Shown here: one piece after another, positions 12,762-39,169 of the stretch | Numbering within the stretch: the stretch's first letter is position 1 | Layout of the letters: every line of letters starts with the position of its first letter | Source of the DNA: Dictyostelium discoideum | Lineage: Eukaryota | Assembly: GCA_000004695.1 (NCBI GenBank) | Contig: CM000153.2 | Span: forward strand, 4,640,001-4,704,000 | Reading direction: 5' to 3' | DNA length: 64,000 nt | The notes under the pieces: model-generated | Database searches by the model: none | What the model saw: only the letters and a program-made list of their open reading frames with translations | What the model was told of the DNA's origin: nothing | Made by a program: the position numbers and the translations under genes

Positions 12762-13099
12762 TTTTAAAATAAAAATAAAAATGAAAAAAAAAAAAACAGA
12801 TCAAAATTAAAAAAATAAAAATAAAAATAAAAAATTAAATTTTATTTTTTATTTTTTTTTTTTATTTTTATTTTTTTTTTTTTTAATAATTTAATTTTCT
12901 TTTAAAATTTTTTTCTCAATTTATTTTTTGTTTTTTTTTTTTTTTTTTAAATTATCAAGTTTTCAATTTTTTAATTTATTTTTCTATAATATTTCTCTTT
13001 GTATAATACAATTTATATCTTTTTTTAATTGTATTATATTACTATTGTAAAAAAAAAAAAAAAAAAATAAAACAACAGAAATAAAACAAAAGAAATAAA

Positions 13100-17115: not shown

Positions 17116-17529
17116 ATGTTTTCTCCCAGGGATAGTTTCAATTTCTTTGATGACCCAACTTTTGGTATTAACCTCCAACCTCTCACAACGACGTATGTTG
17201 AAGTGGAAGATTTGGAAAATGATATCAAAAGATTATCAAGTCTGTTCTATGAAGAGACTGTTCATCTTAGTTATAAATTACCCAATTCTTTAAAGAAGTC
17301 TCGAAATTTCTTACAACCATACCTTAATATTAAACCTATTAAACATTCAAGACAAAACTATACACAATTAACAAACTATATAGACCAATCAAAAGACTTA
17401 GTTCAAGAGTGTAAGTCTTGTTTTAGTGATAATGTTGGTGTCAATGATATATTAAGGGATATACTGCGTGATATGGATAGGTTAAAGGTACATTATTGTT
17501 CAGATGGTGGTATATTTTCATCTTTATAG
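17116..17529 (+). CDS. Small uncharacterised protein (137 aa), copy 1 of a five-member tandem family. Its GC content is atypically high for the locus.
   Basis: Intact ORF MFSPRDSFNFFDDPTFGINLQPLTTTYVEVEDLENDIKR...KVHYCSDGGIFSSL. It is preceded by a CA-rich element (17044-17075) and is 90-95% identical to copy 2. Confidence 0.6.
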   Translation: MFSPRDSFNFFDDPTFGINLQPLTTTYVEVEDLENDIKRLSSLFYEETVHLSYKLPNSLKKSRNFLQPYLNIKPIKHSRQNYTQLTNYIDQSKDLVQECKSCFSDNVGVNDILRDILRDMDRLKVHYCSDGGIFSSL

Positions 17530-17850
17530 TTAATACTATAAAAATGGATTTATGCAATCATATTTTAATTTTTACTATTTATATATTCTTTATTTCATTC
17601 TTTTTTTTTTTTCTCTTTCTCTTTTATTTTTGTTTTTTTTCTTTTGTGTAACAAAAATACAAACTTCCAAAACTAAAAAAAAGTAAAAAAACAAAATCAA
17701 ACAAAATCAAACAAAATCAAACAAATAATTTAAAAATCAAATACAAAATCAAAAACAAAGGTAACAGAAAAAATGAAAAAAAAAACAAAATGAAATAAAA
17801 AATATATAAATAATAAAAAAAAAGTTTATCAAACAATACAAATTAAAAAT

Positions 17851-17914
17851 ATCCTTCCTTCTAATCAACTTTCAATGTATGAATATACATTGAAGGTTGA
17901 TTAGAAGGGAGGAT
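17851..17914. repeat. Near-perfect inverted repeat (hairpin) with about 30-bp arms and a 4-nt loop. It is followed by a short second palindrome (aatgtatcggatacatt) and a conserved 200-bp block C.
   Basis: Left arm atccttccttctaatcaactttcaatgtat against reverse complement of the right arm atcctcccttctaatcaaccttcaatgtat gives 28/30 matches. The same element recurs at 20296-20360, 27512-27575, and (degenerate) at 22620 and 25378-25458. Confidence 0.8.
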
Positions 17915-18459
17915 ATTCAAATCAAATCCCAATGTATCGGATACATTCCTTAGTTAGAATGAAGGGTTTTCTGTTTAGTTTAAAAGAAAAGTGAAATTCT
18001 GTTGCAATATCGATATCTGGTGTCTTAGAGTCAAACTATTTTCTCAATGGCATTCCAATCAATTTCCAAAATACATTCCAGTTTTTCAATCAAAGAAATT
18101 CTATAAATAAACCATTTTAATCCTCTTAAAAAATATTGTTTTGATTTTTTTTTTTTTTTTTTTGATTTTTTTTTTTTTTTAGTTAAATTACTCCTATTAT
18201 TTAAAAAATATTTTTTAACTTCCTTTTATCATTTTTAAAATAATAATTATACCAAAATGTATTTTTCATTTTATAATAGTGAAAATAAAAAATCATTATT
18301 GATGGAATATATTTTAAAAAATGAAAGGACAAAACTAATCCATTTTTTTTTTTTTTTTTTAAGAATATTGGTTTTTTTTTTTTTTTTTTAATCTTATTCA
18401 TAATAAATAGAATAAAATAATAAATACTAATATCTTTTTTTTTTAATTATATCTTTATA

Positions 18460-18718
18460 TTTTTTAAAATTAAATGGTGAACTAATAACATTGCAAATCA
18501 AGGCAAATGCAAATAATGTATATGAAAGTGGTGATCAATGTGGTAATTCAACATTTACTTCATTTAATTACAATAATAATAATGTTAAAACATTTATTAC
18601 AATGTCACCTCATCCTGGTAATGTAGTTGAATTTTATAAATATTATACAAATTTTAAAATTAATGGAATTAATTTCAACAATTTCACAAAATGTAAATTA
18701 AATAAAAAAATTAAATAA
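18460..18718 (+). pseudogene. Decayed 5' fragment of the beta-helix surface-protein gene (array unit 1).
   Basis: Similar to 28530-28930 (GELITLQINANGNNVY.SGDQCGNSTFT ... KTFIT.SP..GNVVE.YK...FKINGINFNNF) with an internal deletion. Confidence 0.6.
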
Positions 18719-18740
18719 AATAATAATAATAATATAATAA

Positions 18741-18827
18741 AATAAAATTAAATAAAATAAAATAAAATAAAATAAAATAAAATAAAATAAAATAAAATAA
18801 AATAAAATAAAATAAAATAAAATAATA
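18741..18827. repeat. (AAATAA)n microsatellite.
   Basis: Visible hexanucleotide run after the unit-1 surface-gene fragment. Confidence 0.9.
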
Positions 18828-19531
18828 CAATTGTAACTTCTTTTGATAATTTTATAGCATAAATTAAAATTAAAATAATTCTTGAAAAAAAAAAAATTAA
18901 ATAAATATATAAATAAATAAATAAAAATAAAATTGAAAATAAAAAGTGTATCTGTGTCTATTATAAAAATTAATTTTATCAATCTGTAAAAATATTTTTA
19001 ATCAATTTTAAAACTCATAATTAACAACAGATAAAAAATTAAGATATGCATATATATAAAAAAAAAATTATTATTATTATTAAATAAAAGATAACAAATT
19101 AACCTTCTATTTATTACTATATAAAATTTTTTATTTTACATGAATAATTGGTTTTTTTTTTTTTTTTTTTTATTTTTTTTTTTTTTTGTTTAATATCAAG
19201 ATTGGTGAATTTAAAAATAAAAATAAAAATTTAAAAAAAATTAAAAAAAAACACCTCACTCATTTTTTTGGGTATGGAAATGAGATTTAATCTTATTATT
19301 TTTTTTAATTATTTTTTATTTTTATTTAAAAAAATTAAATTTGGGAAAAAAAAAAAAATTAAGCACCACATTAAGGGTTTTTTTTTTTTTTTTTTTTTAA
19401 TTCTTTTTTTATTTTTATCCTTTTTGAACACTAAATTAAATTAATTATTATTTTTATATATATATATATATATATCCAACACACACACCATTTTTAAAAA
19501 ATAACATTTCTTTTTTCCTCTCCACCACGCA

Positions 19532-19945
19532 ATGTTTTCTCCCAGGGATAGTTTCAATTTCTTTGATGACCCAACTTTTGGTATTAACCTCCAACCTCTC
19601 ACAACGACGTATGTTGAAGTGGAAGATTTGGAAAATGATATCAAAAGATTATCAAGTCTGTTCTATGAAGAGACTGTTCATCTTAGTTATAAATTACCCA
19701 ATTCTTTAAAGAAGTCTCGAAATTTCTTACAACCATACCTTAATATTAAACCTATTAAACATTCAAGACAAAACTATACACAATTAACAAACTCTATTGA
19801 CTATGCAAAAGTCTTTGTTCAAGAGTGTACGGCATGTTTTGATGATAATGTTGGTGTCAATAATTTATTAAGGGATATACTGCGTGGTATGGATAGTTTA
19901 AAGGTGCATTATTGTTCAGATGGTGGTATATTTTCATCTTTATAG
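19532..19945 (+). CDS. Small uncharacterised protein (137 aa), family copy 2.
   Basis: Intact paralogous ORF. The upstream (TA)n and CA-rich element (19476-19490) are conserved. Confidence 0.6.
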   Translation: MFSPRDSFNFFDDPTFGINLQPLTTTYVEVEDLENDIKRLSSLFYEETVHLSYKLPNSLKKSRNFLQPYLNIKPIKHSRQNYTQLTNSIDYAKVFVQECTACFDDNVGVNNLLRDILRGMDSLKVHYCSDGGIFSSL

Positions 19946-20592
19946 TTAACACTATAAAAATGGATTTATGCAATCATATTTTAATTTTTACTATTTATAT
20001 ATTCTTTATTTCATTCTTTTTTTTTTTTTCTCTCTTTTATTTTTGTTTTTTTTTGTTTTTTTTTCTTTTGTATATAACAAAAATACAAACTTCCAAAACT
20101 AAAAAAAAGTAAAAAAACAAAATCAAACAAAATCAAACAAAATCAAACAAAATCAAACAAAAAATTTAAAAATCAAATACAAAATCAAAAACAAAGGTAA
20201 CAGAAAAATTGAAAAAAAAAAAAAAAAAAAAAAAAAAATGAAATAAAAATATATAAATAATAAAAAAAAGTTTATCAAACAAAACAAATTAAAAATATCC
20301 TTCCTTCTAATCAACTTTCAATGTATGAATATACATTGAAGGTTGATTAGAAGGGAGGATATTCAAATCAAATCCCAATGTATCGGATACATTCCTTAGT
20401 TAGAATGAAGGGTTTTCTGTTTAGTTTAAAAGAAAAGTGAAATTCTGTTGCAATATCGATATCTGGTGTCTTAGAGTCAAACTATTTTCTCAATGGCATT
20501 CCAATCAATTTCCAAAATGCATTCTAGTTTTTCAATCAAAGAAATTCTATAAATAAACCATTTTAATCCTCTTAAAAAATATTGTTTTGATT

Positions 20593-20635
<43 letters not shown>

Positions 20636-20924
20636 TTCAATTACTCCTATTATTAAAAAAATATTTTTTAACTTCCTTTTATCAATTTTAAAATAATAAT
20701 TATACCAAAATGCATTTTTCATTTTATATAAGTGAAAATAAATAATCATTATTCATGGATTATATTTTAAAAAATGAAAGGACAAAACTAATCCATTTTT
20801 TTTTTTATTTTTTAAAATTTTGTTTTTTTTTTTTTCATCTTATTCATAATAAATAGAATAAAATAATAAATACTAATATCTTTTTTTTTTTTTTTTTTTA
20901 ATTTTAGCTTTAAATTTTTTAAAA

Positions 20925-21382
20925 TTAAATGGTGAACTAATAACATTGCAAATCAATGCAAATGGAAATAATGTATATGAAAGTGGTGATCAATGTGGTA
21001 ATTCAACATTTACTTATAATTCAATAAATGCAATTTCTTATTTTGAAACAATTAAAGTATATAATCAAACCTCAAAAATTTAAATTTATCCACATTGAAA
21101 TTACTTTAGATGACTCTTTATAAAATTGGTAATCCATTAATACTTTTTCAAAATAAAATTGAAATTTCGCCTTTAAATCAAAAATCTAAAAATGTAATCA
21201 TTGATGATTCTTCAATTAATAACAATAATAATAATAATAATACTAAAACATTTATTACAATGTCACCTCCTCCTGGTAATGTAGTTGAATCTTATAAATC
21301 ATATACAATTTTTAAAATTAATGGAATTAATTTCAACAATTTAACATTTACAATTGTAACTTTTGATAATTTTATAGCATAA
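20925..21382 (+). pseudogene. Decayed 5' fragment of the beta-helix surface-protein gene (array unit 2).
   Basis: Collinear with 28520-29000. There are in-frame TAA stops (for example ATT TAA ATT at about 21080). Confidence 0.6.
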
Positions 21383-22032
21383 ATTAAAATAAAAATAATA
21401 TTTGAAAAAAAAAATTAAATAAATATATAAATAAATAAATAAAAATAAAAATAAAAATAAAAAAAAAAGTGTATGTGTGTCTATTTTAAAAAATTATTTT
21501 TATCGCTCTATAAAAATATTTTTAATTCATTCCAACTCATAATTAACAACAGATAAAAAATTAAGATATGTATATATATAAAAAAAAAAATTATTATTTT
21601 TATTTAAATAATAGATAACAAATTAACCTCATTTTTATTACTATATAACAGTAAAAAATAATATTAACACTTTTTTTTTAAAAAAAAAAAAAAAAAAAAA
21701 ATAATAAAAAAAAAAACTGATCACTTAATTTTAGGTGAAAAAAAAAAATAAAAAATAAAAAAAAATAAAAAAAAAATATATATTTTGTTAAGGAATTTAC
21801 AAACAACAAAAAAAATTAATTTTTTTTTTTTTTTCTATTTTTTTTTTTATTTTTTTTATTTTTTTTATATTCACCTAAAATTTTTTTTTTTTTCTCATTT
21901 TTTTTTTTTTTTTTTTTTTTTTATAACACTATAATTAAATTAATAATAATAAAATAATAAAATAATTTAATTGTTTTTTTATATATCAAAAACACATATA
22001 TAATATTTTAAAACTCAAACTTTTCTACTACA

Positions 22033-22341
22033 ATGTCTTCTCAAGAAGGTGACCTTCCCCCTCTCAGCGATTACCCAGATGCAACTAAAGTGGATGAATT
22101 ATGGTGTAAAATCATTGCCCAATCAACTACTCCCCTTGAAATAACCAATTTATTGAACCAGTTTTCCCATTTCTTAAAGCCATGCCAAGTTAACTCACTT
22201 TCAAAGAACCCACAAACGAAAAAATTACTAGAACATTTAGAAAAGTGTAGGGGCCCATGTAATAATGATAATACCAACAATTTATTAAGCGATATGATAC
22301 AGAATGTCCAAAATTTAATTATATTATTAATGATCCCATAA
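22033..22341 (+). CDS. Divergent small-protein family member (102 aa), copy 3.
   Basis: It occupies the same slot in unit 3. It has weak but collinear similarity (CRGPCNNDNTNNLLSDMIQNVQNL versus CKSCFSDNVGVNDILRDILRDMDRL) and the same downstream flank (tatagttaactactataaa...). Confidence 0.4.
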   Translation: MSSQEGDLPPLSDYPDATKVDELWCKIIAQSTTPLEITNLLNQFSHFLKPCQVNSLSKNPQTKKLLEHLEKCRGPCNNDNTNNLLSDMIQNVQNLIILLMIP

Positions 22342-22949
22342 AGCAATAATAATTATATCATGTAATGGTATATTTTCAACTTTATAGTTAACTACTATAA
22401 ATATGGATTTATGCAATCACTATAGTTTAATTTTTATTATTTAAATTTTATTTATATAATATTTATTTCATTCTTTTTTCTTTGTTAACAAAAATACAAA
22501 CATCCCACACAATACAAAATCAAAAACAAAGATAAAAGAAAAACAAAAAAAATGAAATAAATAATATATAAATAATAAAAAATTAAATAATAAAAGTCAA
22601 ACAAATTAAAAATATGCTTTGATACATTCGTTTGTTACAAGGAGGGATTTTCTGTTAAATTTCGTTGCAATATCTGGTACCTTAGAGTCAAACTATTTTC
22701 TTGGTGTCATTCTAGTCAATTACCTAAATGTTTCCTGTTTCAATCAAAGAAATTCTCTAAATAAATTTAAAAACCTTACAAAAACTTTTTTTTTTTTTTT
22801 TTTTTTTTTATTTTATTTTATTTTTTTTTTTAATTTTAATTATCCATAATAATCAATCAAAACATTAAAAAAAAAAAAATAAAAAAAAATAAAATGATAA
22901 CATGTATATATATATTTTTTTAATTTTAACTTTTTATTTTTTAAAATTA

Positions 22950-23198
22950 AATGGTGAACTAATAACATTGCAAATCAATGCAAATGGAAATAATGTATAT
23001 AAAAGTGGTGATCAAAGTGGTAATTCAGCATTTAAATGTAATTCAATAAATGATGCAATTTCTTATTTTGAAACAATTAAAGTATATAATCAATCATTGA
23101 TGGCACCGATTAATAACAATAATAATACTATTAAAATATTTATAACAATATCACCTCTCCTCCTCTTGGTAATATGGTTGAATAAAAATAAAAAATAA
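22950..23198 (+). pseudogene. Decayed 5' fragment of the beta-helix surface-protein gene (array unit 3).
   Basis: ORF 22902..23198 retains the signal peptide and GELITLQINANGNNVYKSGDQSGNSAFKCNSINDAISYFETIKVYNQS. It then skips about 50 codons present in the full gene. Confidence 0.55.
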
Positions 23199-23745
23199 AA
23201 AGTGGTTGTGTATCAATCTTAAAATTTTATTTTATCACTCTGTAAAAATATTTTTAATTCATTCCAAAAATCATAATTAACCACAGATAAAAAAAATATA
23301 TTGTTTAAATAATAGATATTTTATTACCAATTAACCTCACTTATTTTGCTATATAAAAAGTGTTGATTTATATTATTACTTTAAAAAAAAAAAATAATAA
23401 CATTGGGATTTAATTTTATTTTTTACTCCAAAAAATTATCATTATTTTTTTTTTTTTTTTTTTTATAATATTAAATTAAAAAAAATAAATAAAATTAAAA
23501 AAACATGTTCTCTTATTTTTTTGGGTTAAAATGAAAATGAGATTTAATTTAATTATTTTTTTTTTCCACTCCCAAAATTTTTTAATTTTTTTTTATTTTT
23601 TTCATTTTTAAATTTTTTTTTTTTAGACACCATTTTTTTTTTTTTTCATTCCTTTTTTTATTTTCATCCATTTTGCACTATAATTATTATAATTATTTTT
23701 AAACACACACACTATTTTAAACATTTCTTTCCTTTCTTCCACGCA

Positions 23746-24138
23746 ATGTTTTCTACCTGGAATTTCTTTGATGACCCTCCTGGTATTAACCTCGAACCTC
23801 TCACAGCGACCTACGTCGAAGTGGAAGGGATAGAGAATGATATCAAGAGAGGATCGAGTCAATTCTATGAAGATACTGTTCATCTTTGTTTTAAATTACC
23901 CAGGTTTTTAAAGAAATCTCGCAATTTCTTACAGCCGTACCTTGATATTAAACATTCGAGACTAAACTATACACAATTAACAAACTCTATAGACTATTCA
24001 AAAGTCTTTGTTGAAGAGTGTATAGCATGTTTTGGTGATAATGTTGGGGTCAATAATTTATTAAAGAATATTCTGCGTGATATGGATAGGCTAAAGGTAC
24101 ATTATTGTTCAGATGGTGGTATATTTTCATCTTTATAG
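23746..24138 (+). CDS. Small uncharacterised protein (130 aa), family copy 4.
   Basis: Paralogous ORF (MFSTWNFFDDPPGINLEPLTATYVEVEGIENDIKR...KVHYCSDGGIFSSL) with a short N-terminal deletion relative to copies 1 and 2. Confidence 0.55.
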   Translation: MFSTWNFFDDPPGINLEPLTATYVEVEGIENDIKRGSSQFYEDTVHLCFKLPRFLKKSRNFLQPYLDIKHSRLNYTQLTNSIDYSKVFVEECIACFGDNVGVNNLLKNILRDMDRLKVHYCSDGGIFSSL

Positions 24139-24228
24139 TTAAAACTATAAAAATGGGTTTATACAATCATAGTTTAATTTTTATTCTTTATTATTACTAT
24201 TTCATTCTCTTTTTTTTACTTTCACCTT

Positions 24229-24285
<57 letters not shown>

Positions 24286-24419
24286 TTACAAAATACAAAC
24301 ATCACACACAACAAAAAATAACAAAAAACCAAAACAAAATCAAACAAAATCAAACAAAATCAAATATGAAGGGTAAAAGAAAAAATGAAAAAAAAAAAAA
24401 ATAATCAAAAAAGTCAAAC

Positions 24420-25560
24420 TATACAAATTAATAATATCCTTCCTTCTAACCAACCTTCATTGATATATCCGACGATAATACACCGAATGTTCAACAGAAG
24501 GAAGGAATTCAAATCTACCTCAATGTATCCTACGAGGATACATTGCGAGCTCCCAAGGATATTCAAATCTATCTCATTAGAATGAAGGATATTCAAATCT
24601 ACCCCAATGTATCCTATGAGGATACATTGCGAGCCCCCAAGGATATTCAAATCTATCTTCAATGAATCCGATGGATAATATTGGACACTCATTAGAATGA
24701 AGGATATTCAAATCAACCCCAATGTATCCTACGAGGATACATTGCGAGCCCCAAGGATATTCAAATCTATCTTCAAAGTATCCAATTGATAATACCTTGA
24801 AAACTAATTAGAATGAAGGATATTCGCCCCAATCTTCAATGTATCCGATAGGATACATTGAACCCTCTCAAGAAGGATATTCAATCTATCCTCAATGTAT
24901 CCAATTGATAATACCTTGAACACTCATTAGAATGAGGGATATTCAAATAAACCTTCGATGTATCCGATAGGATACATTGAACCCTCACCGAAATGATATT
25001 CAAATCTATCTTCAATATATCCAATGGATAATATATTGAACACTCAGTAGAAGGAAGGATATTCAAATCAACCTTCAATGTATCTGATACATTGAACCCT
25101 TATCAGAAGGATATTCAGTCTATATTCAATGTATCCGATGGATAATACATTGAACACTCAATAGAAGGAAGGATATTCATATCAACCGGTCAGATACATT
25201 GAACACTCATTAGAATGAAGGATATTCAAATCAATCTCCAATGTATGGGATAAATTCATCGGTTAGAAGGAAGGATATTTAATCAACCTTCAATGTATTC
25301 GATCGGATACATTTAACGCTCACTAGAAAGAAGGATATTCAAATCAATATCCAATGCATCCCATCGGCATACAGAACGCTCACTAGAGAAGGATATTCAA
25401 ATCAACCTCCAATGTATTGGATACATTCGTTGATTTGGGTCCTTCTCTAGTGAGCGTTCAATGTATGCCGATGGGATGCACTGAACGCTGATTAGAAGGA
25501 AGGATATTCAAATCAATGCCAATGTATGGAATACATTCATTGGTTAGAAGGAAGGATTTA
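24420..25560. repeat. 1.1-kb satellite-like tandem array of 55-60-bp units (an AB dimer of about 112 bp). Each unit carries the short palindrome CAATGTATCCGAT(A)GGATACATTG and a GGATATTCAAATC motif.
   Basis: By eye there are about 20 successive units. The array ends in a larger inverted repeat (cgctcactagagaagga ... tccttctctagtgagcg, 25378-25458). It sits where other units have the single hairpin. Confidence 0.8.
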
Positions 25561-25954
25561 AAAACAGAAAAAACTAAAAAAAGAAAAGTGAAATTCCATG
25601 TGCCTTGGAGTCAAACAATTTTCCCATTGAAATTCCAGTCAATTACCAAAATGCATTGCTGTTTCAATAAAGAAATTCTCTAAATAAATTTCAATACCAT
25701 TTTAATCCTCTTAATCAAAACAATAGTTTTTTTTTTTTTTTTAAATTAGTCCTTTTAGATTTTATTAAATAAAAAATATTTTTTTAACATCCATTTAATA
25801 ATAATAATTAAACCAAACGTATTTTTCATCATTAATAATAAAAAATGAAAAGACTATTTTTTTTTTTTATTATTATTCATATTAAATAGTATAAAATAAT
25901 AAATAATAATATCTTTTTTTTTTTAATTTTTAACTTTTTATTTTTTATAATTAA

Positions 25955-26450
25955 ATGGTGAACTAATAACATTGCAAATCAATGCAAATGGAAATAATAT
26001 GAAAGTGGTGACCAATGTGGTTATTCAACATTTACATGTAATTCAATAATTAATGCAATTTCTTATTTTAAAAAAATTAAAGTATATAATCAATCCTCAG
26101 AAATTTAAATTTATCAACCATTGAAATTACTTTTAGATGATTGTATATATAAAATTGGTAATCAATAATATTTTTTCAATATAATATTGAAATTTTGCCT
26201 TTAAATCAAAAATCTAAAAATGTAATCATTAATGATTCTTCAATTAATAACAATAATAATAGTATTAAAACATTTATTATAATATCACCTCCTGGTAATG
26301 TGGTTGAATCTTATACAATTTTTTAAACTAGTGGAAATAAATTCAACAATTTCACATTTACAATTGTAACTTCTTTAAATAATTTTTAACATAATTACAT
26401 AATCCATCCAATAGTATTGGTGGGGTTGTATTTGAAATATTTATTTTTTA
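25955..26450 (+). pseudogene. Decayed 5' fragment of the beta-helix surface-protein gene (array unit 4), fused to about 60 bp derived from the antisense strand of the Cys-rich gene at 15553-16260.
   Basis: 26382-26450 (aacataattacataatccatccaatagtattggtggggttgtatttgaaatattta) matches 15870-15935. The upstream part matches 28530-28960 with indels. Confidence 0.55.
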
Positions 26451-26464
26451 CATGTATAAAATTG

Positions 26465-26523
<59 letters not shown>

Positions 26524-26772
26524 CTAGTATGAATTTAAAATAAAAATTAAAAGCAATTAAATTAAAAAATCACTTCTCTCATTTTTTTAAGTTTTGTGTA
26601 AAATATCTCGAGATTTAATCTAATTATTTATTTTTTTTTTTTTTTTTTTTAATTTTTAAATTTTTTTTTTTTTTTTTTTCACCTTTAAATTTGATTTTTT
26701 TTTTTCATTCTCTTTGAATAAGACCTTACTGTTTTAATTTTAATATTTCTTTTTTTCCCATCCACCACGGCA

Positions 26773-27159
26773 ATGTTTTCTCCCGGGGATAGTTTCAATT
26801 TCTATGATGACCCAACTCTTGGTATTAACCTCCAACCTCTCACAACGACGTATGTTGAAGTGGAAGATATAGAGAATGATATCAAGAGAGTATCAAGTAT
26901 GTTCTATGAGGACACTGTTCTTCTTAGTTATAAATTACCCGAGCATTTAAAGAAATCACGTAATTTCTTACAGCCATACCTTGATATTAAACATTCAAAA
27001 TTAAACTATACACAACTAACAAACTCTATTGACTTTGCAAAAGTCTTTGTTAAAGAAGGTATAGCTTGTTTTGGTGATAATGTTGGTATCAATAATTTGT
27101 TAGAAGATATATTGCGTGATATGGATAGGTTAAAGGTATATTATATTGAAATAGTGTAG
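26773..27159 (+). CDS. Small uncharacterised protein (128 aa), family copy 5. The C-terminus is altered and it may be decaying.
   Basis: Paralogous ORF ending ...RLKVYYIEIV instead of KVHYCSDGGIFSSL. Confidence 0.45.
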   Translation: MFSPGDSFNFYDDPTLGINLQPLTTTYVEVEDIENDIKRVSSMFYEDTVLLSYKLPEHLKKSRNFLQPYLDIKHSKLNYTQLTNSIDFAKVFVKEGIACFGDNVGINNLLEDILRDMDRLKVYYIEIV

Positions 27160-27468: not shown

Positions 27469-28006
27469 AAATATATAATATATAAATAATAAAAAAAGTT
27501 TATCAAACAATATTAAAAATATACTTCCTTCTAATCAAACTTCAATGTTTGGATACATTGAAGGTTGATCAGAAGGAAGAATATTCAAATCCCAATGTAT
27601 CGGATACATTCCTTGGTTAGAATGAAGGGTTTTCTGTTTATTTTAAAGAAAAGCGAAATTCTGTGGCAATATCGACATCAGGTGCCTTAGAGTCAAACTA
27701 TTTTTTCAATAACATTCCAATCAATTTTCAAAATGCATTCCAGTTTTTCAATCAAGGAAATCCCCTAAAATAAATTTAAATACCATTTTAATACATAAAA
27801 ACTGTAACTTTTTTTTTTTTTTTTTTTTTTTTTAGTTCAATTACTCCTATTTTATTAAAAAATATTTTTTAACTTTCTTTTACCATACCAAATGTATTTT
27901 TCATTTTAAATGTAATGAAAATCATTATTTGAAGAATATATTTTAAAAAATGAAAGGACAAAACTTACCCAGATTTTTTTTTTTTGGATTTTCAAGAAAA
28001 AAAATA

Positions 28007-28037
<31 letters not shown>

Positions 28038-28189
28038 GAGTAAACTTTGTCTTTTTAAATTTTATTAAATAAAAAAATATTTTTTTAACATCTATTTAAA
28101 TAATAATTAAACCAAATTTATTTTTCATCATTAATAATAAAAAATAATTATTATTCAAACAATTTATTTTAAAATAAAATGGAAAGACG

Positions 28190-28410
28190 ATTTTTTTTGA
28201 GGTTTTATAGAAAACCTTCATTTTCTTGAAACACACAATTTTATTTATTTTTATTTTTATATTTTTAAATTTTTTTTTTTTGGGTTTTAAAGAAAAACCA
28301 TCTTTTTCCCAATAACTACAATTTTATTTATTTTTATTTTTATTTTTTTTAATTTTTTTTTTGGATATTTTCTTAAAAACAGACCATTTTGATTTTATTT
28401 TCTATTTTTT
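28190..28410. repeat. Tandem triplication of an about 85-bp AT-rich unit (..gg[gt]tttta[at]agaaaa[ac]c.tc.ttt...caattttatttatttttattttt..).
   Basis: Three successive similar units at 28195-28275, 28282-28360 and 28363-28410, immediately upstream of the full-length surface-protein gene. Confidence 0.5.
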
Positions 28411-28475
28411 TTTTTTTTTTTTTATTTTAATCATTCGATCGAAACATTAAAAAAAAAAAAAAAAAAAATTATAAA

Positions 28476-29993
28476 ATGATAAAATATATTTTTCCATTTT
28501 TTTTAATTTTAACTTTTTATTTTTTAAAATTAAATGGTGAACTAATAACATTGCAAATCAATGCAAATGGAAACAATGTATATAAAAGTGGTGATCAGTG
28601 TGGTAACTCAACATTTACATGTAATTCAATAAATGATGCAATTTCTTATTTTGAAACAATTAAAGTATACAATTAATCATCAGAAATTCAAATTTATCAA
28701 CCATTGAAATTACTTTTAGATGATGGTATTTATAAAATTGAAAATCAATTAATACTTTTTGAATATAATATTGAAATTTCACCTTTAAATCTAAACTCTA
28801 AAAATGTAACCATCGATGGTACCTCAATTTATAACAATAATAATAATAATATTAAAACATTTATTACAATATCACCTCCTACAGGTAATATAGTTGAATC
28901 CTATAAATCCCATAGCATTTTTAAAATTAATGGAATTAATTTCAATAATTTCACATTTACAATAATTTACATTTATAAAACTTATTTAAATGTAGTAGGA
29001 TCATTTGAAAATTGTAATTTTAATAATTTTAAAAGTGAATTTCCAATGTTTTACCTAATTAATAATAATAATAATAACATAATAAGTAATTTATATTATA
29101 ATATAAATTCATCATTTGCTTTAACGAATTGTTCAATGATCAGTAATTCAAATATAGGTTATAATTCATCTATAATTAATAGTAAAAAATTCAGTGTACT
29201 TATTTATCGATCAAAATTCCAATCAATTAATGAATGTAATAATTTTGGTTACTTTTATGATAGTTCTCGATTAACAATTTATAATAGTTCAATAAATAAT
29301 AATAATTGTAAAATAATTTTCAATATAAATAAAATTAATAAGTTAGATGTATTCAATACAAAATTTGAAAATAATAATGGAACAATATTCAATATTAAAT
29401 TTAATTCAAATGAAGGTTTAATTTCAATTAAAAATAGTAGCTTTATCAATAATTATGGTGGTAGTATTATTAATTTAGAATCAAATAATAATATTCCTTT
29501 TGAAAATTTAAAAAAAAATCCACAACTATTTAGAGACTCTACATTTTTTAATAATTCATTCAATGGAAATGGAAGTATAATTAATTCAATTGGTGCTTAT
29601 TTTATTGTTTCTGGTGAATTTGAAAATAATAAAGCATTAAATCACCAAGGTGATTTATTTTATTTACAAGATAGTTATTGTTTAATAGAAGATTCAAAAA
29701 TAAATCAAGTTAATAATTTACCAAGTGGTAAAGGTTCAATAATTTATTTACAAAAATCAGAATTAGAAATATCAAGTGGTAATTTCAAACTAGATGGTTC
29801 ACTTGTTTGTAATTCTTCAAAAATAAAACTTTTACGAAATACAATTGTTTTTAAACCTACTATTGACTGTCAAAATTGTACCTTTAATAACAATAATTAT
29901 TGTGAACTTAATTTTGGAATAAAAAATAAAATATCAATTCTTTTAAATTTAATAATATTATTACTATTATTATTATTATCACTATCAATATAA
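28476..29993 (+). CDS. Secreted/GPI-anchored beta-helix-like surface protein with polymorphic-membrane-protein-type repeats (FxxN and GG[AS]I-like). It is full length but carries an in-frame TAA at 28674-28676, so it is either a pseudogene or N-terminally truncated.
   Basis: ORF 28476..28676 (signal peptide MIKYIFPFFLILTFYFLKLNG...) and ORF 28704..29993 (TTG-initiated in the track) are in the same frame and separated only by the TAA. Repeats include FINNYGGSIIN and FNGNGSIINSIGAYF. The C-terminal tail is hydrophobic ([18 protein letters not shown]). Confidence 0.5.
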
Positions 29994-30085
29994 TTAATAA
30001 AATAAACAAGAAATAAAAAAAAAAATCACTTTTATTTTTAATTTTTAATTTTTAATTTTTATTTTTAATATTTAATTTTTAATTT

Positions 30086-30910
30086 TCAAAGTGATATTAA
30101 TAAAATTAATAATGATACAATTGTTGAAATAATATTAATATTTAAAAAAGAACTAGATGAATCAAAGTCATTTGATGATGATGATGATGATAATGAAGAT
30201 AATTGAGAATCAAAAGAAAATGAAGGAGTTGTATAATTTACAGTTTGATTGATTGGATTTGAATCAGTGAGGAAATTAAACATTTTTAAGGATTTGAAAT
30301 TATCACAATTTGTACTATTTGAAGGATATGTTTGTTTTAAAATACATGATTGCGGTTTACAATCACTTGTTAAACATTCATAAACATTAATTGTCATACC
30401 ATCTTTACCAATACATTCTCTCCTTTGATATCTAATTGTTGTACTATTATTACTATTATCATTTGAAGACGTTTCTAATTTTAATGGATCATTACCAAAA
30501 TTCATTTTAATACATGTATTATTTCTATAAGAATTTATGAAATAATTTTCACAATTAAAATAATTTACTTCATTACAATAGGTATCTATATTTCTTGGAT
30601 TAAACTCTGAATCGTTTATGATATATTGATATGATGTACCATCAGTGTTTAAATAACATTGTTTGGTTTGTACAAATTCTGTTATATCTCGTTCGATTGA
30701 ACATTGATCTTGATTATTAACTTTTGTGATTGCTAATTTACCACCTGCTCCTTTTTGAAAGTATGAATATCTTGAACAATTTGTACTACCAATTGTAAAT
30801 AATAATTCTCCTTTACATAATATATTACTATATTTAATTATATGTACTTCAAATCCAATTATTTTTTTAATTAAAAATATAATAAATATAATTTTTATTA
30901 TTAATTTCAT
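30086..30910 (-). CDS. Secreted Cys-rich protein with Ser-rich stalk and C-terminal hydrophobic (GPI-like) tail. It is a paralog of 15553-16260.
   Basis: A 274-aa ORF with a signal peptide and Cys pattern shared with the 15553-16260 product. Confidence 0.6.
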   Translation of the reverse strand: MKLIIKIIFIIFLIKKIIGFEVHIIKYSNILCKGELLFTIGSTNCSRYSYFQKGAGGKLAITKVNNQDQCSIERDITEFVQTKQCYLNTDGTSYQYIINDSEFNPRNIDTYCNEVNYFNCENYFINSYRNNTCIKMNFGNDPLKLETSSNDNSNNSTTIRYQRRECIGKDGMTINVYECLTSDCKPQSCILKQTYPSNSTNCDNFKSLKMFNFLTDSNPINQTVNYTTPSFSFDSQLSSLSSSSSSNDFDSSSSFLNINIISTIVSLLILLISL

Positions 30911-30954
30911 GTCTTTTTTTTTTTTGATTTAATTTAAATACATTTATTATTTGG

Positions 30955-30987
<33 letters not shown>

Positions 30988-31349
30988 AACACAAAACTGT
31001 ATAGAAAAAAAAAAAAATTTTAAAAATAAAATAAAATAAAAAATCTCAAACTACAATTAACACACATACATACACACAAACCCAACAAAATAAATAAAAA
31101 AAAATAAAAAAATAATTAAAAAAATAATTAAAAAAATAATAAAAAAAAAAAAATAATTAAAAAAAAAATTCAAATCATTTAATTAATTAAAAATAGATAG
31201 CAGAAAAAAAAAAAAAAAATAAAAATAAAAATAATAATAATAATAAAAATATCATTTTCACTCACTTTTTTTTATATATTTAAAACTTTATTTTTTATTT
31301 CCATTGCATTTCATTTAATTTTTTGGAACTATATTGAATTTGATGCTTT

Positions 31350-31393
<44 letters not shown>

Positions 31394-31664
31394 AAAAATA
31401 AAAATAAAAATAAAAATAAAAATAAAACAAAATTAAAAAAAAAAACCAAAATTAAAAATTTTTTTTTTTTTTCGCCCACATATAAGTTTCAATTTGAAAT
31501 TTAAAAGACACCAGTGTCTTCAAAAAAAAAGAGTTAATAGGTTTTTTTTTTTTTTTCAATCTTCTCTTTTATTTATTTTATTTATTTCATTTTTTTTTTT
31601 TTTTTTTTTCATTTTTTTTATAAATTATACATATTCAATTAAATAAGCGCATAAAAAAAAAAAA

Positions 31665-32491
31665 ATGACAATTCTAACCAAACCTCACCAATTACAAAAT
31701 TGTGAAAAATTCCATCCATGGGCAAAAACATGCACATCATCAGCATCACAAATTTGGTTTGCAGTATTCCTTGCAGGTTTAAAACTATACGCACCATTAT
31801 TTTTAGTTCCTGCATTAATATTTAAAAGAAAAAGGTAATAAATTTCATACAAACAACAATAAACAAACAAACAAACAAACAAACAAACAAACAAACAAAC
31901 AAACAAACAAACAAACAAACAAACAAACAAACAAACAAACAAACAAACAAACAAACAAAAAGATATTGAAAGAGAGAAACAATTGGAAATAATAATAATA
32001 ATTATTATTAAAATAATAATTAAATAACATTAATATTAATATGATTTTTTTAATAATAAATTTATTATTTAAAAATTGAAAATAGTATACAATTTTTAGT
32101 ACAAAGAACATTACCAGAAATATTAAGAAGTTCAGTATTTTTAGGAACATATGCAGGTGTATATGCAGGAGCGATTTGTTTAATTAGACGTATTGTAGGT
32201 AGAGATTTAAAATCAATGGCAGCAATTAGTGGTTTCTTTGCAGGTTTATTATCGATTTTAATAGAGAAAAAGAGTAGAAGATCAGAATTGGCTTTATATT
32301 GTTTAAATCAAGCTATTGAAGTAGTTTGGAAAATGGCTGCTGCCAGAAAATTAGTTCCATTATTTAAGAATGGTGAAGTTTTAGTCTATATGATTGCAAG
32401 TTCAATCTTATTGTATTTCTATCAAAATGAACCTGATAGTTTAAGAAGTAATATGAATGGTTTATTAAAATTCTTTATTGGTAAAAATTAA
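31665..32491 (+). CDS. TMEM135 N-terminal-domain homolog (Tim17-like peroxisomal/mitochondrial membrane protein, about 190 aa). Two exons: 31665..31834 and 32086..32491.
   Basis: Exon 1 encodes MTILTKPHQLQNCEKFHPWAKTC...LKLYAPLFLVPALIFKRK. The GTAATA donor is at 31835, the acceptor aaaatag ends at 32085, and phase is 2. Exon 2 encodes ...LPEILRSSVFLGTYAGVYAGAICLIRRIVGRDL...LIEKKSRRSELALYCLNQAIEVVWKMAAARKLVPLFKNGEVLVYMI.... From memory this is collinear with the human TMEM135 N-terminus ([73 protein letters not shown]). Confidence 0.75.
31861..31967. repeat. (AAAC)n / (CAAA)n microsatellite of about 26 units inside the intron of the TMEM135-like gene.
   Basis: Perfect tetranucleotide run visible in the sequence. 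Confidence 0.95.
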
Positions 32492-32736
32492 TAATAATAA
32501 AAGTAGTAATAATAAAATAAATAAAAAAATTTAAAAAATAAAATTTAAAAAAAAAAAAAAAAAAAAAAAGATATACTTTATTATATTCATATATATATAT
32601 ATTGTTAAATTATATAAATATTTAAAACTTAATTTATTTATTTTATTTATTTATTTCTAATGTTAAAATTTTATTATCATTTTTATTAGTATTATTATTT
32701 ACAAGTGGTTTATATTTATATTGGGGGTTAACATTT

Positions 32737-33728
32737 TTAATGTTGGTTATAAAATCTTTTATTTGAAGTGAAACCATTACTATTATTATTATTTTTATTA
32801 TTAAATCTTGTTGGTTGGTCTTCTAAATCAATTATTTCAAGTTCTTGATCAGTATTATTTCCTTTACCATTATGATAGTGATGATGAGTATGATTATGAA
32901 TTGGTACAGCATTTGGTGGTATTGGGAAACCCATTTGTTTATTACTACCACTATTATTAAAAAGTTGATTATTATTATTATGATGATGATTAAAATTTGA
33001 ATTCATACTATTCATTATATGTGTACTTCTTGGTGTATAAAATAATGAGTTACTATTATTACTTTGATCATCATCACCATCACTATTACCATTATTATGA
33101 AAAGTATGAGTTAAATGACTAGCACCACCAGTACTAGCACCAAAACTTGTGGAGTTAAAATTACTCATACCAAAACTTGAATTACCCATACTACCCAAAT
33201 TAAAATTACTTTTATCAAAAATCTTTTTTGAATTATTACTAATATTACTAAAACCTTTACTATTATTAGAAGAGGTTGAATATTTTAATGAACTTCCACT
33301 TGTGTCAACTGTATCATTAAATTCTAATGGTGTTGATGATAAAAATGATGGATTTATATCTTTATAATTTATTGATTGATTCATACTATTATTACTTTGT
33401 TGTTGTTGTTGTTGTTGTTGTTGTTGATAGTATTGATTTTGAGATTGTTGTTGAGATTGTTCATTAAAGTTTATATTTGGCATTGAAGTATTATTTAAAA
33501 ATGGGGATTTTTGATTTTGATTTCTATCGAAATTTACAGATTTGCTAATTTGTTCATTTGTAGTTGTTGGATTTAAATTTAAATTCTTTAAAGGTGAAGA
33601 AATTACTTTATAATTTAAACTTGTAGTAATATTATTATTGTTATTGTTTTGATTCGTACTTGCACTATTATAGAATAATGATGATTGATTATTACCATTA
33701 TTTATAGATGAATTTCTATTACTACTAC

Positions 33729-33777
<49 letters not shown>

Positions 33778-34548
33778 GTTATTATTTTTATTATTATTGT
33801 TATTATTACTACTATTATTACTCTTTAGCATTGATTCATCTAAAAATTGGCTATTGTTGTTTTGATCACCATTTTGGTGTTGTTGAAATTGAAACTCTTG
33901 ATATAAATGATTAATTGGTTGACCATTTTTATCATAAAATATTTCCACTTGAGTTGCTGATTCATTATATATACTACTATTATTATTATTATTATTCTCA
34001 AATATTAAATCACTATTATTACTACTACTTGTATCACCTCTACTATAAATTGAATATTGATTTCTATCTTCATTAAATTCAACTTTTGATTCTCTACCAC
34101 TTAATTTATTTATACTATTATTATAGTTATTATTATTATTATTGATATTGGTGTTATTACTGTCAATACTATTATTATTATTATTAATTTTCTTTGATTT
34201 GGTTGATGAGGAGAATGTTAAATTATTACTATTTATATCATTTTCATCATTTATTTCGTCATTATTATCGCCATCATCATCATCAATAAATAAAGTACTA
34301 TTATGTGTATTGTTATTATTATTACTACTACTATCGTTTCTATTTATATCCCCACCATCATTATTGTTATTATTATTACCGTTATTTATATTTTTATTAT
34401 TATTATTATTATTTTCAGAAGAGGTACTACTTGTGAAAAATGCAAATTTTGAAGGTGTATTCTTTAAAGAAGAACGTAGTTGTTTTGATGAGGATGTGGA
34501 AATAGAATTTTGATGATTTTTATGAATTGGTGTAATTGTTGAAAATGG

Positions 34549-34597
<49 letters not shown>

Positions 34598-35106
34598 GTT
34601 TTATTATTGCTTTTTATTGAAAAAGATGTAGACGATGTTTGTGATGTTTGTGATGTTTGTGGTGGTGGTGGTGGTGATGGTGTTTTTATTGGTGTTGTTA
34701 TTTTATTTATAATTTCATTTTGTTTCTGTTGTTGTTCTTGTTCTTGTTCTTGTTCATCATCAGTATTATTATTTTCATCTTGTTGATATTTAAAATTATG
34801 ATTATGTTGATGATTAATTTTATTATTAAAGTTTTGATTATTATTAATTATATTATTTTTTAAAGGTGTTTTAGTTAATATTGAATCTAATGGTGAAGAT
34901 TCTGGGTGTATTATAATATTTCTTAATTGGTCGATTCTGGGTGTTGAAAGTGCAAAATGTTCTTGTATACAATCAATACCAAATAATAAGGTTATCTTTA
35001 TCACTTCATTCCATTGTTGTTCTGGAAATAATTGAAGATATGAATTTATTGCTTTTGATGCTTTAGAAATACTAAAAGATGTTGAATTAATATTCTTATC
35101 TTTCAT
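32737..35106 (-). CDS. Hypothetical low-complexity (poly-Asn/Gln/Ser-rich) protein of 789 aa with a short structured N-terminal domain.
   Basis: Long intact ORF. Only the first about 70 aa (…AINSYLQLFPEQQWNEVIKITLLFGIDCIQEHFALSTPRIDQLRNIIIHPES) look globular, and no domain is recognised. Confidence 0.5.
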
Positions 35107-35218
35107 TTTCTTTTTCTTTTTTATTATTTATTTTTTTTTTTATATTTTTATTTTTTTTTTTCTATAAATTATTATTAATTTTTATTTTTATTTCTTTAAT
35201 ATATTTGTTTTAATCAAT

Positions 35219-35261
<43 letters not shown>

Positions 35262-35754
35262 AAAATTTGGAAAAGATTTAAATTGAAAAAAAAAAAAAAG
35301 CGCCAAAAAAAACACTTTTTCTTTTTTTTTTTTTTTTATTTTTATTTATTTTATTTTTTAATTTTTTTATTTTGAATGTTAGCATAAAAAATTGACGTGA
35401 ACTTATTATTAGAATTTTTATTAATTATTTCAAATAATATTACAACTTCAAAACACACATTAAAAAAAAAAATAAAAAATTAAAAAATTAAAAAATAATA
35501 ATAAAAAAAAAAAAATTAATTTAAAAAATAATAAATTAATAAAAAACAAAATGAATAAAAATTTGGGTCAAAATAAAATTTTCATATATATTAAAACAAA
35601 CAAATACATACATAAATAAACAAATACATAAATAAAAAAAATAAAAAATAAAAAATAAATAATAAAAAAAAATAAAAAAAAAAAAAAAAATAAAAAAAAA
35701 TAAATAAAAAAAATAAATAAATTAAAAATTAAAAATTAAAAATTAAAAATTAAA

Positions 35755-36272
35755 ATGGAAATACCAAATTTATCAGGATATTGTATTGATATAAATAAAA
35801 AAGAATATAATTCATTTGGTAAAGGAAGTAAAAGTGAAGGTGGTAATTGTTATCAATTAAACATTTATAAAGAAGTTGTATTAAAAGATCAAAAGAGATT
35901 AGAGGATGCACCAAAAAGTTTAAAGAATATTGATGTTTATGGTGGAGAGATTGGTGATTCAGAATATGAACCCATTGGATATAGAATAGGTGATTTAAAA
36001 AATAATATAAATGCAATCACCTTTTCAAATTTAACTATTGGTAAAAATTTAAATTCAACAACCATTGATTTATATCAAAATCAATATGGTATAATTTTTG
36101 AACCAAATGATATTCCAACTAAAATTTCAATTAATCCATTATCAAACTCTAATGATAATGATCCGACAAGTAAATTATTTTATCAAAATTTTCAAGATAT
36201 TCAATTTGAATTAAATCAACATTTTTGTTTATCAATTGGTTCTGTAATTTTTAAAATTATAAATAATAATAA

Positions 36273-36308
<36 letters not shown>

Positions 36309-37179
36309 TTCATCGTCATCATTTTCTTCTTCTTGCTCAACAATTGGAGAATTTTGTCAAATACCTGGTATTGAAAATGAATCAATTTATAAATTATTAG
36401 AACAAGATCCAATTAAATTTGTAAATAATTATTGTAATGCAAGTAATAAAGATTATTTAGATTTAAAAAAGTTTATTCAAAGATTACATTCAATATTTAA
36501 TCTCGTAAATTGGTCAATAGATTTTCAAAATTATCCAGCTTTATTATTTTTAATTTCAAATATCTATAGAGAAATTAATGAACAACATAAAGAATATCAA
36601 TTAGGAGTTGCAAAAAGATTAGAATATATCATTGAATTACCATTGATTTTACCATCAAATGAAATAAATCAATCATTTTCAAATCAATTATTAAATTTAT
36701 TTAAAGAAAATAATCAATTTCAAAAACCATTATTATTAAATTTATCTTTATTAATAAATAATAATATTAATAATAATAATAATAATAATAATAAATCAAA
36801 TAATGATGATATTTTTAAATTAATAATTAATAATGATAAATTTTTAAATTTATTTAAATCATTATTATCAAAAAATAATGAACAAGAAATTAAAAAACAA
36901 TATTATTTTACAACTAATATTAATCAATTTGAACCAATTTCAAAACAAATTATTAATGAAGAATTCATTTTAAAATTAGTTTCAATTATTAAATCTAATG
37001 GTATAAATGGTTTAATATTAAATAAAGATAGATCACCTTATTTAATTTTACCATCATCAAATTGTTTAATTGAACCATCAACTATTAAATTTGATGATTC
37101 ATTAACAAATCTTTATTCAAAAGAAAATCAAAACAAAACAATTAAATTTTTAGAAAAATTAAATAATATTAAAAAATAA
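35755..37179 (+). CDS. Hypothetical protein (474 aa) with a poly-Ser tract.
   Basis: Intact ORF with a canonical ATG and A-rich upstream context. No domain recognised. Confidence 0.5.
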
Positions 37180-37267
37180 TAAAAATTTAAAAATAAAGCG
37201 AAAGCAATCATGATGTTTTTTTTTTAAAAAAATAATAATACACAATATTTTATTTATTTATTTATTT

Positions 37268-39169
37268 TTAATCATTACCTAATTTTTTTAATTTATTTAA
37301 ACCAACTTTAATATTTGTTTGATTTCTTTTATATAATATAAAACCAACAATTATGAAAATTGTAGAACCAACAACACCAACAACTACACCTATAGTAATT
37401 TTTACCCATTCCCTTGATTTTTCATTATTACATCCTTGTTCATTTGTTGATGAAGTATGATCAATAAAAATACTAAAAGATGGATCCATTTGAATTAAAT
37501 TTTCATAATGTGGTATATTAATTGCTATTGATAAATTTGTTGAATTCGTAAATAAATATGAATTTGATAATGTTGTTATTGTACCATCAACAATACCTCT
37601 TTTTATAAAATTACAATTTAATGATCTATCATTTAATTTAATTTTAAAATTATCTAAATTATTATATATATTGATTGAATTAGTTGGACAATCATTTTCA
37701 ATTTGACTATCAACTTGACTTTGAATTATTAATTTCAAAGTATTTAAATCACTTTCAAATGAATAACTTGAAATTTCTATATTAAATTTTAAAGAATATG
37801 GTTCAATTTTAATTTCTTGGTTTGCAAATTTAATTTTATTATTAACATTTGAATCAATATCTTTATACCAATTAAATAATACTTTAATTTCTGTAGATTT
37901 ATTTAATGATTTTGAAATTGATGTTGAATTAATAGTTGTATTATAAAAATAGGTTTCAATTTGTTTGGTATCATTAATGGTTTGATTATTATATGACCAT
38001 AATATTGATTCTAAATTATATTGTTTTATAATTTTATCTTGAAAATCAAGTTCATTTAATGATTTAATTATAATTAATGATTTAAATTTTGAATTTTCAA
38101 ATAATTCTGTATTTGGACTTTTTAAATTAAATGATGTAGTTGAATTTTTGGATGGTTCTAAATTTGGAAAAGTGGGAGTTATTATTATACAATTCGTATT
38201 ATTATTAGTAAGAGTGAATGGACAATCACAACTATATGTACCAATTTTATTATTACAAATAAAATTTATTGGACAAGTATAATTATTAAAATCGCCATCT
38301 GAAATTAAACATTCATCAATATCAATACAATCACCTTTAGCATTTAATTTAAAACCTGGACTACAATAACAATCTGCATTGACTCTATCACATGTTCTAT
38401 TACCAACACATGGATTAATTGGTTGATCACAAAAATTAATTCTACAAAATTCATCAATTTGATATGCTTTATCACATAAACATTTACTATTATTTACACA
38501 TTTTCCATAATTACAATTTGGACATTTAAATTCTGCATACCAAAAAGTTGAATAATATGAATTTATTGCACCAAATTGTTTACAATAACCATTTCCATTT
38601 GTTTCATTTAAAACCAATAATGATGAATTAAAATTTGGTATGAAATATGTGATATTATTTGAACAACTTTGAATAATTAAATCTTTTTCAATTTTATAAT
38701 TAACTGTTTTAATAAAGGAATCACTTGAATTTAAACAATTTTTTCCAAAATTATAAATATTTGTAGTATAAAAATTTGAGTAACAATTTGTAACTGGTAA
38801 ATTACCATTTTCAATTGTATAATAATTTGTTCTACCTATTTCTGCGTATCTAATTTTAATTAATTAATATTTAGAGAAAAAAAAAAAAAAAAAAAATGAA
38901 AAAAAAAAAAAAAAAAAATTATCTTACATTGGAGGTGAAGTAGGTGTTATAATAGGACATTTAGGTTGAATTGTAAAGACATAGCTATTTGAATAACCAA
39001 TAGATTTACACATGACTCCTTGAATTTGTTCATTTTTTATATTAGAACAACCATAATTTGTATAATTTGAAACTGATGAGCATTGTGAAAAAACAAAATT
39101 ATTTTTGTTTAAGTGAACTATAAATAATAATATTAATATTATTTTGATATTACCAAATATTTTAACCAT
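37268..39169 (-). CDS. Type I membrane protein with EGF-like/calcium-binding EGF domains. Two exons: 38928..39169 and 37268..38849.
   Basis: Exon 1 has a signal peptide (MVKIFGNIKIILILLFIVHL..) and ends ..TSPP at the GTAAGA donor. The acceptor is aattag and phase is 2. Exon 2 has multiple Cys-rich EGF modules including cbEGF DIDECL...C.C, a long N-glycosylation-rich stalk, a TM segment (ITIGVVVGVVGSTIFIIVGFILY) and a short cytoplasmic tail. Confidence 0.65.

Follow-up and report, generated by a model that had tools for sequence, protein, structure and literature searches.

When a single in-frame stop codon interrupts an otherwise full-length gene, does the gene still make a protein? DDB_G0286791 of Dictyostelium discoideum AX4 raises this question. 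It lies in a 64,000-nucleotide stretch of chromosome 4 (assembly GCA_000004695.1, contig CM000153.2, positions 4,640,001 to 4,704,000; hereafter the window, in whose numbering coordinates are given). The full-length copy occupies 28476-29993 on the forward strand and comprises 505 conceptual codons and a terminal stop, with one internal TAA. Translation confirmed what an earlier reading made from the letters alone (the sequence-only reading) had described, namely two open reading frames (ORFs; 28476-28676 and 28704-29993) in the same frame, separated solely by the TAA at 28674-28676, which is codon 67. The sequence has a base composition of about 20% G+C, and the 438 open codons beyond the TAA have a chance probability of about 1e-20, estimated from a stop frequency of about 0.099 per codon at 81% A+T; the longest ORF across 2000 shuffles, by comparison, reached 104 codons. 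Exact-sequence look-ups in public assemblies with the AX4 gene model, the 429-aa downstream ORF (with L or M as its first residue) and the 66-aa upstream ORF returned no record. A literature search found no paper naming DDB_G0286791, and a search on pseudogenes gave no relevant result.

We consider it likely that DDB_G0286791 in AX4 is a young, lineage-specific pseudogene, created by a recent change of CAA to TAA and masked by a spurious annotated intron; as such it is an ordinary young pseudogene that involves no new decoding or splicing mechanism. Its product, present or only recently lost, would be a secreted protein in which a signal peptide precedes a right-handed beta-helix and the C-terminus ends in a hydrophobic or GPI-type tail. 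In the AX4 lineage a single transition converted codon 67 from glutamine to a stop. Only one start carries a signal peptide, and translation from it would yield no more than 66 residues; the AX4 allele is therefore most probably null, that is, a loss of function. The rest of the ORF is still intact, the lesion being recent, and the reference annotation sidesteps the stop with a 99-nt intron drawn between a fortuitous in-frame GT and AG.

The architecture of the conceptual protein is that of a predicted cell-surface or secreted molecule. Its hydropathy peaks at residues 1-20 and 481-505. The first peak corresponds to a putative signal peptide (MIKYIFPFFLILTFYFLKLNG; 28476-28538, forward strand), modelled as a helix at residues 5-18 and with a putative cleavage site; the second and stronger corresponds to a C-terminal hydrophobic tail of 20 residues (29931-29990, forward strand; model helix 482-503), which could be either a GPI-signal-like sequence or a membrane anchor. 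Between them lies a repeat body, and the protein carries 14 N-x-S/T glycosylation sequons and 11 cysteines, a combination typical of an extracellular protein. From these features, secretion or anchoring of the product would be expected. The AlphaFold model shows a right-handed parallel beta-helix of the pectate-lyase type, with three-strand coils stacked as a solenoid and similar to solved structures, at only 6-17% sequence identity to all structural matches. The likeness extends to autotransporter passengers (Bordetella Vag8), chlamydial Pmp proteins, the PfbA adhesin, polysaccharide lyases and phage tailspikes. Whereas autotransporters end in a beta-barrel, this eukaryotic protein combines a signal peptide with a C-terminal hydrophobic tail modelled as a single helix, and the Pfam autotransporter beta-barrel domain gave no match to it. 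No catalytic residues were identified in the protein. The gene had been described from its letters as beta-helix or Pmp-repeat-like; the modelled fold bears out the first half of that description, but the second half does not hold at the level of Pfam, where neither the focal protein nor its intact orthologue (P0001) matched any family at E<=1. Two of 13 family members did match Chlam_PMP (PF02415; best E 6.8e-07).

Homologues were retrieved with the conceptual protein of 28476-29993 as query, which returned the AX4 protein of the locus (P0002) together with gene models of further Dictyostelium assemblies. The family is small, and members turned up solely in group-4 Dictyostelium. AX4 itself has a further, apparently intact paralogue, DDB_G0268844 (P0010, 581 aa), on a different contig of 4,923,596 bp. 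It shares with the focal protein an N-terminal CGxxTFTCNSIxDA cap motif, a repeat body, and a C-terminal cysteine motif followed by a tail, but the two are only about 32-34% identical. For DDB_G0268844, supplementary tables of PMC4403905 list low RNA-seq counts in early development.

We compared the locus with three assemblies, GCA_054859355.1 (L001), GCA_054859385.1 (L002) and GCA_054883475.1 (L003), and with that of D. cf. discoideum (L004). The flanking genes occur in the same order in all four, which establishes the orthology of the DDB_G0286791 copies. L003 is nearly identical to the window over 9524-31432 (99.6% identity, 13 mismatches and 13 gaps); it shares the TAA at codon 67, and the only other difference within the gene is E96Q. 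Codon 67 is CAA in the syntenic but diverged L001 and L002, and the homologous codon is likewise CAA in all paralogous fragments of AX4, L003, L001 and L002. The TAA (28674-28676, forward strand; Q67*) is thus the derived state, through a C>T change at 28674. This agrees with the earlier suggestion of a strain-specific stop, the TAA being limited to AX4 and the one near-identical assembly.

Q67* is therefore real, an assembly error being very unlikely. A base-calling error in the 2005 AX4 reference is, in our estimation, an exceedingly improbable source of the TAA: CAA and TAA differ by a single base, but the separately assembled GCA_054883475.1, with a contig of 5,576,411 bp against 5,450,249 bp in AX4, carries the same T. 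L003 might be a re-sequenced laboratory strain derived from AX4 rather than an independent isolate, in which case it would confirm the base call and leave the spread of the allele unaddressed. Given the divergence of L001 and L002 (dS about 0.07), D. discoideum proper may carry the stop as a fixed rather than a polymorphic allele. As a separate observation on these assemblies, L001 and L002, both labelled D. discoideum, share only 88-90% identity with AX4 over 10 kb (window 28005-38167), with dS of about 0.065-0.085 in flanking genes, whereas GCA_054883475.1 differs by only about 0.06%; GCA_054859355.1 and GCA_054859385.1 may represent a cryptic or mislabelled lineage. A literature search found no paper describing the new Dictyostelium assemblies.

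The length of the ORF beyond the stop had been taken to argue against old pseudogenization, and the pattern of indels backs this view. Within the gene, six indels separate AX4 from the intact L001 orthologue, and every one has a length divisible by three; of 22 indels in the non-coding flanks, 6 do. This implies coding constraint through most of the AX4-L001 divergence and hence a recent lesion. A recent lesion is also sufficient to explain why the ORF past the TAA is intact, so that readthrough need not be invoked. The pairwise dN/dS between AX4 and L001 is 0.67, compared with 0.21 and 0.42 for two downstream genes, a pairwise value that is not assignable to the AX4 branch; together with the exclusively in-frame indels, it would fit rapid evolution of the gene or a loss that is very recent.

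How the stop is treated in the annotations turns on a 99-nt GTAATT..TTTTAG interval at 28621-28719 (forward strand), which spans codons 49-81 and is annotated as an intron in AX4 and in L003 (the ACTFIT assembly). The AX4 protein (P0002, 411 aa) has exons that match the window exactly at 410 of 411 residues; the ACTFIT model of the same gene has 472 aa, and its sole single-intron solution is 28621-28719. The sequence-only reading had stated that no GT..AG pair with a length divisible by three spans the stop, which proved incorrect: there are 39 such pairs, 36 of which leave an open frame. The annotated interval is one with GT..AG ends and a frame-keeping length, and removing it computationally gives an open product with the junction ...NSTFT/YDGIYK.... 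Other properties expected of an intron (non-coding composition, lack of coding conservation and splice-site conservation in orthologues) were each absent. The G+C content of the interval is 20.2%, against 18.9% in the exons of DDB_G0286791, and so shows no drop, while introns recovered from neighbouring models have 4-15% G+C against about 29% in the exons of those genes. Conservation of the interval at the protein level holds for P0001, P0003, P0004, P0005 and the wider family; distant homologues from D. dimigraforme and D. citrinum, like the intact L001 orthologue, translate straight through it. In the alignment of 13 family members it contains the invariant C49, N50, D54 and A55 and the near-invariant Y58, Q75, L77 and L81. 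Four differences separate AX4 from its diverged orthologues here, three of them synonymous at third positions and the fourth the nonsense change itself, and L001 has no indels relative to AX4 within it. In the AlphaFold model the interval forms a helix (residues 52-62) and the first strands (72-81), with pLDDT of about 69-89 over 10-residue blocks. The acceptor AG reads GG in L001 and L002, whose gene models read across the interval. Judged on these comparisons, the 28621-28719 intron is almost certainly an annotation artefact, laid over a stretch that appears to have coded ancestrally for the N-terminal beta-helix cap.

It is nevertheless worth asking whether the interval is truly spliced in the AX4 lineage through a pre-existing cryptic GT/AG pair, which would bypass the stop and yield a 472-aa secreted protein lacking 33 residues. 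We regard this as unlikely. In its favour, the interval is in frame, 99 nt long and bounded by GT..AG with an open product; two independent annotation runs selected it; its GTAA donor and TTTTAG acceptor resemble the sites of real neighbouring introns; and its length is close to the 79-101 nt of introns recovered in neighbouring models. Against this, its G+C content is exon-like, and it encodes the best-conserved motif of the family along with a well-modelled cap helix and the first rung, the invariant Cys49 among them, so that a spliced product would probably misfold. A joint origin of the acceptor AG (28718-28719) and the stop in AX4 was considered and rejected, as the L001 and L002 fragments also read TTTTAG; the AG is therefore ancestral, and the G in the full-length copies of L001 and L002 derived. 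The AG is thus fortuitous rather than acquired with the stop, and it is missing in the intact orthologue. Gene predictors, moreover, draw comparable 'introns' over lesions in a dead upstream fragment (c2, discussed below; DDB_G0286775 and P0006) and in the frameshifted L002 gene (P0003), which indicates that the artefact is systematic. Such splicing, if real, would be a true 'intronization' caught in the act in AX4, in which the nonsense mutation had triggered the conversion of coding sequence at 28621-28719 into an intron; the secreted beta-helix protein of 472 aa would then have lost its ancestral cap. We hold this, too, to be unlikely. A new mechanism would be at work at DDB_G0286791 only if this interval were really spliced.

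A second intron of the AX4 model, reconstructed at 29805-30010 (206 nt, forward strand), deletes the last 63 codons, and with them the conserved C-terminal cysteine motif and the hydrophobic tail, so that the AX4 model ends in ...GSLK. The C-terminal cysteine pattern and tail are conserved in P0001, P0003, P0004 and P0005, and the tail is retained in the ACTFIT model and in all homologues. This intron, too, is probably an artefact.

Two further routes to a functional product lead around or past the stop. Were the TAA read through at a useful rate, a full-length 505-aa protein would be made, and the 438 downstream codons, intact and in frame, are what this would predict; a recent lesion, however, predicts an intact ORF equally well. 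The stop stands in the context TAA TCA TCA, with none of the known readthrough contexts (such as UGA-CUAG or UAG-CARYYA) present, and the frameshift losses in other lineages point to dispensability, which together make readthrough highly improbable. UAA, moreover, terminates translation more efficiently than the other eukaryotic stops, and it is the one that genes of the A+T-rich D. discoideum genome usually carry. Alternatively, a shorter protein could be made from the first in-frame ATG past the stop (codon 192, at 29049) and act without a signal peptide. The long ORF that is left would allow it, but this ATG lies 125 codons beyond the stop; the product would be missing its signal peptide and cap along with several rungs of the helix, whereas all homologues place the fold between a signal peptide and a hydrophobic tail; and the sequons and cysteines noted above are of extracellular type. 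We judge this route highly improbable.

The reading of DDB_G0286791 as a young pseudogene is placed in context by its fate in other lineages. The L001 orthologue is intact (P0001, 504 aa) among the same neighbouring genes. In L002 the gene has a 12-bp in-frame deletion followed by 17-bp and 1-bp frameshifting deletions, and the stretch between the latter two is out of frame and rich in stops; the syntenic orthologue in L004 is broken into pieces that lie in different frames. On this comparison the gene has been broken independently in two other lineages while remaining intact in L001; it is repeatedly lost and probably fast-evolving. The losses in L002 and L004 indicate that the gene is dispensable. 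A side observation is that the L002 gene (10001-11485) is annotated as coding despite its state, as a 437-aa model (P0003) that skips two stretches of the frameshifted sequence. In its genetics the AX4 locus resembles known lineage-specific (polymorphic or unitary) nonsense pseudogenes masked by an annotated intron: a single disabling lesion sets it apart from an undamaged orthologue at the syntenic position, its ORF is otherwise whole, and a short in-frame GT..AG interval skips the stop. Its one distinguishing feature is that inactivation also took place independently in at least two further lineages (L002 and L004).

Upstream of the full-length copy lies a tandem array (17116-27159, forward strand), in whose units a small gene (128-137 aa) precedes a 5' fragment of the focal gene. 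The small gene is present as four tandem paralogues (MFSPRDSFNFFDDP...HYCSDGGIFSSL) at 17116-17529, 19532-19945, 23746-24138 and 26773-27159, all on the forward strand. Pfam gave no significant match to it. L001 and L002 each have three called copies, and tblastn found none in the syntenic L004 locus. The four fragments, also on the forward strand, each carry their own lesions. Fragment c1 (18340-18688), a 5' piece, is internally deleted and lacks the homologous ATG. Fragment c2 (20795-21354) contains frameshifts, CAA at 21066-21068 and TAA at 21081-21083. Fragment c3 (22805-23183) keeps the ATG, has CAA at 23091-23093 and diverges past codon 68, with a 98-aa ORF at 22902-23198. Fragment c4 (25884-26364) has a 4-bp deletion, CAA at 26091-26093 and TAA at 26106-26108.

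By BLAST and alignment all four fragments end near codon 160 of the focal gene, which places a duplication breakpoint at about this codon inside the gene. The dead 5' fragments would be older by-products of the tandem duplication of a unit made up of the small upstream gene and the first ~160 focal codons. The possibility, raised in the sequence-only reading, that every copy is a pseudogene thus holds within AX4, where the four fragments are truncated near codon 160 and bear lesions of their own and the full copy has the nonsense codon. The same reading had the array copies carrying CAA at the codon of the focal stop and TAA two codons later; the CAA is found in c2, c3 and c4, but the TAA lies five codons on, and in c2 and c4 it aligns with CAA 28689-28691 of the full gene. 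A link between the fragment TAA and the full-gene TAA was considered and rejected, the former lying five codons downstream and being common to the fragments in all genomes, which makes it an older, independent lesion.

The annotations of the array show the same behaviour as that of the focal gene. DDB_G0286775 (20922-21373) is the dead fragment c2 annotated as protein-coding in AX4, in which a 26-nt 'intron' (21060-21085) skips the lesions, and the annotation of the ACTFIT assembly (L003 10001-11844) joins c2 and the small gene upstream of it in one 271-aa model (P0020). The value of the locus for curation is chiefly that DDB_G0286791 and DDB_G0286775 are probably mis-modelled in AX4, with introns drawn over pseudogene lesions, an artefact that recurs in newer Dictyostelium annotations. 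The locus also illustrates birth-and-death turnover in a lineage-specific family of secreted beta-helix proteins, with one allele intact, one nonsense, one frameshifted and one decayed, and could interest those who work on the fast-evolving surface proteins of social amoebae.

Several features of the neighbourhood are recorded here in their own right. A minisatellite at 24496-25422 has a basic unit of about 57-59 nt (TRF periods 54, 58, 114, 119 and 234) and a higher G+C content than its surroundings; the unit contains an inverted repeat, CAATGTATCC..GGATACATTG, adjoining AAGGATATTCAAATC. Elsewhere in the array the unit recurs in one or two copies (17885-17970, 20331-20416 and 27548-27633), and it is also present in L001 and L002. 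A 102-aa ORF (MSSQEGDLPPLSDYPDATKVDELW...) at 22033-22341 on the forward strand precedes c3 in the sole array unit without the small gene; L003 likewise has it as a called gene (12491-12799), and Pfam gave no significant match. Pfam searches on the small array gene and the other neighbours gave sub-threshold matches only. Among these, the convergent downstream gene at 30086-30910 on the reverse strand (274 aa) has a sub-threshold match to CfaA_B_C, counting factor-associated protein (E 0.0035; 17.8 bits against a cutoff of 28.6).
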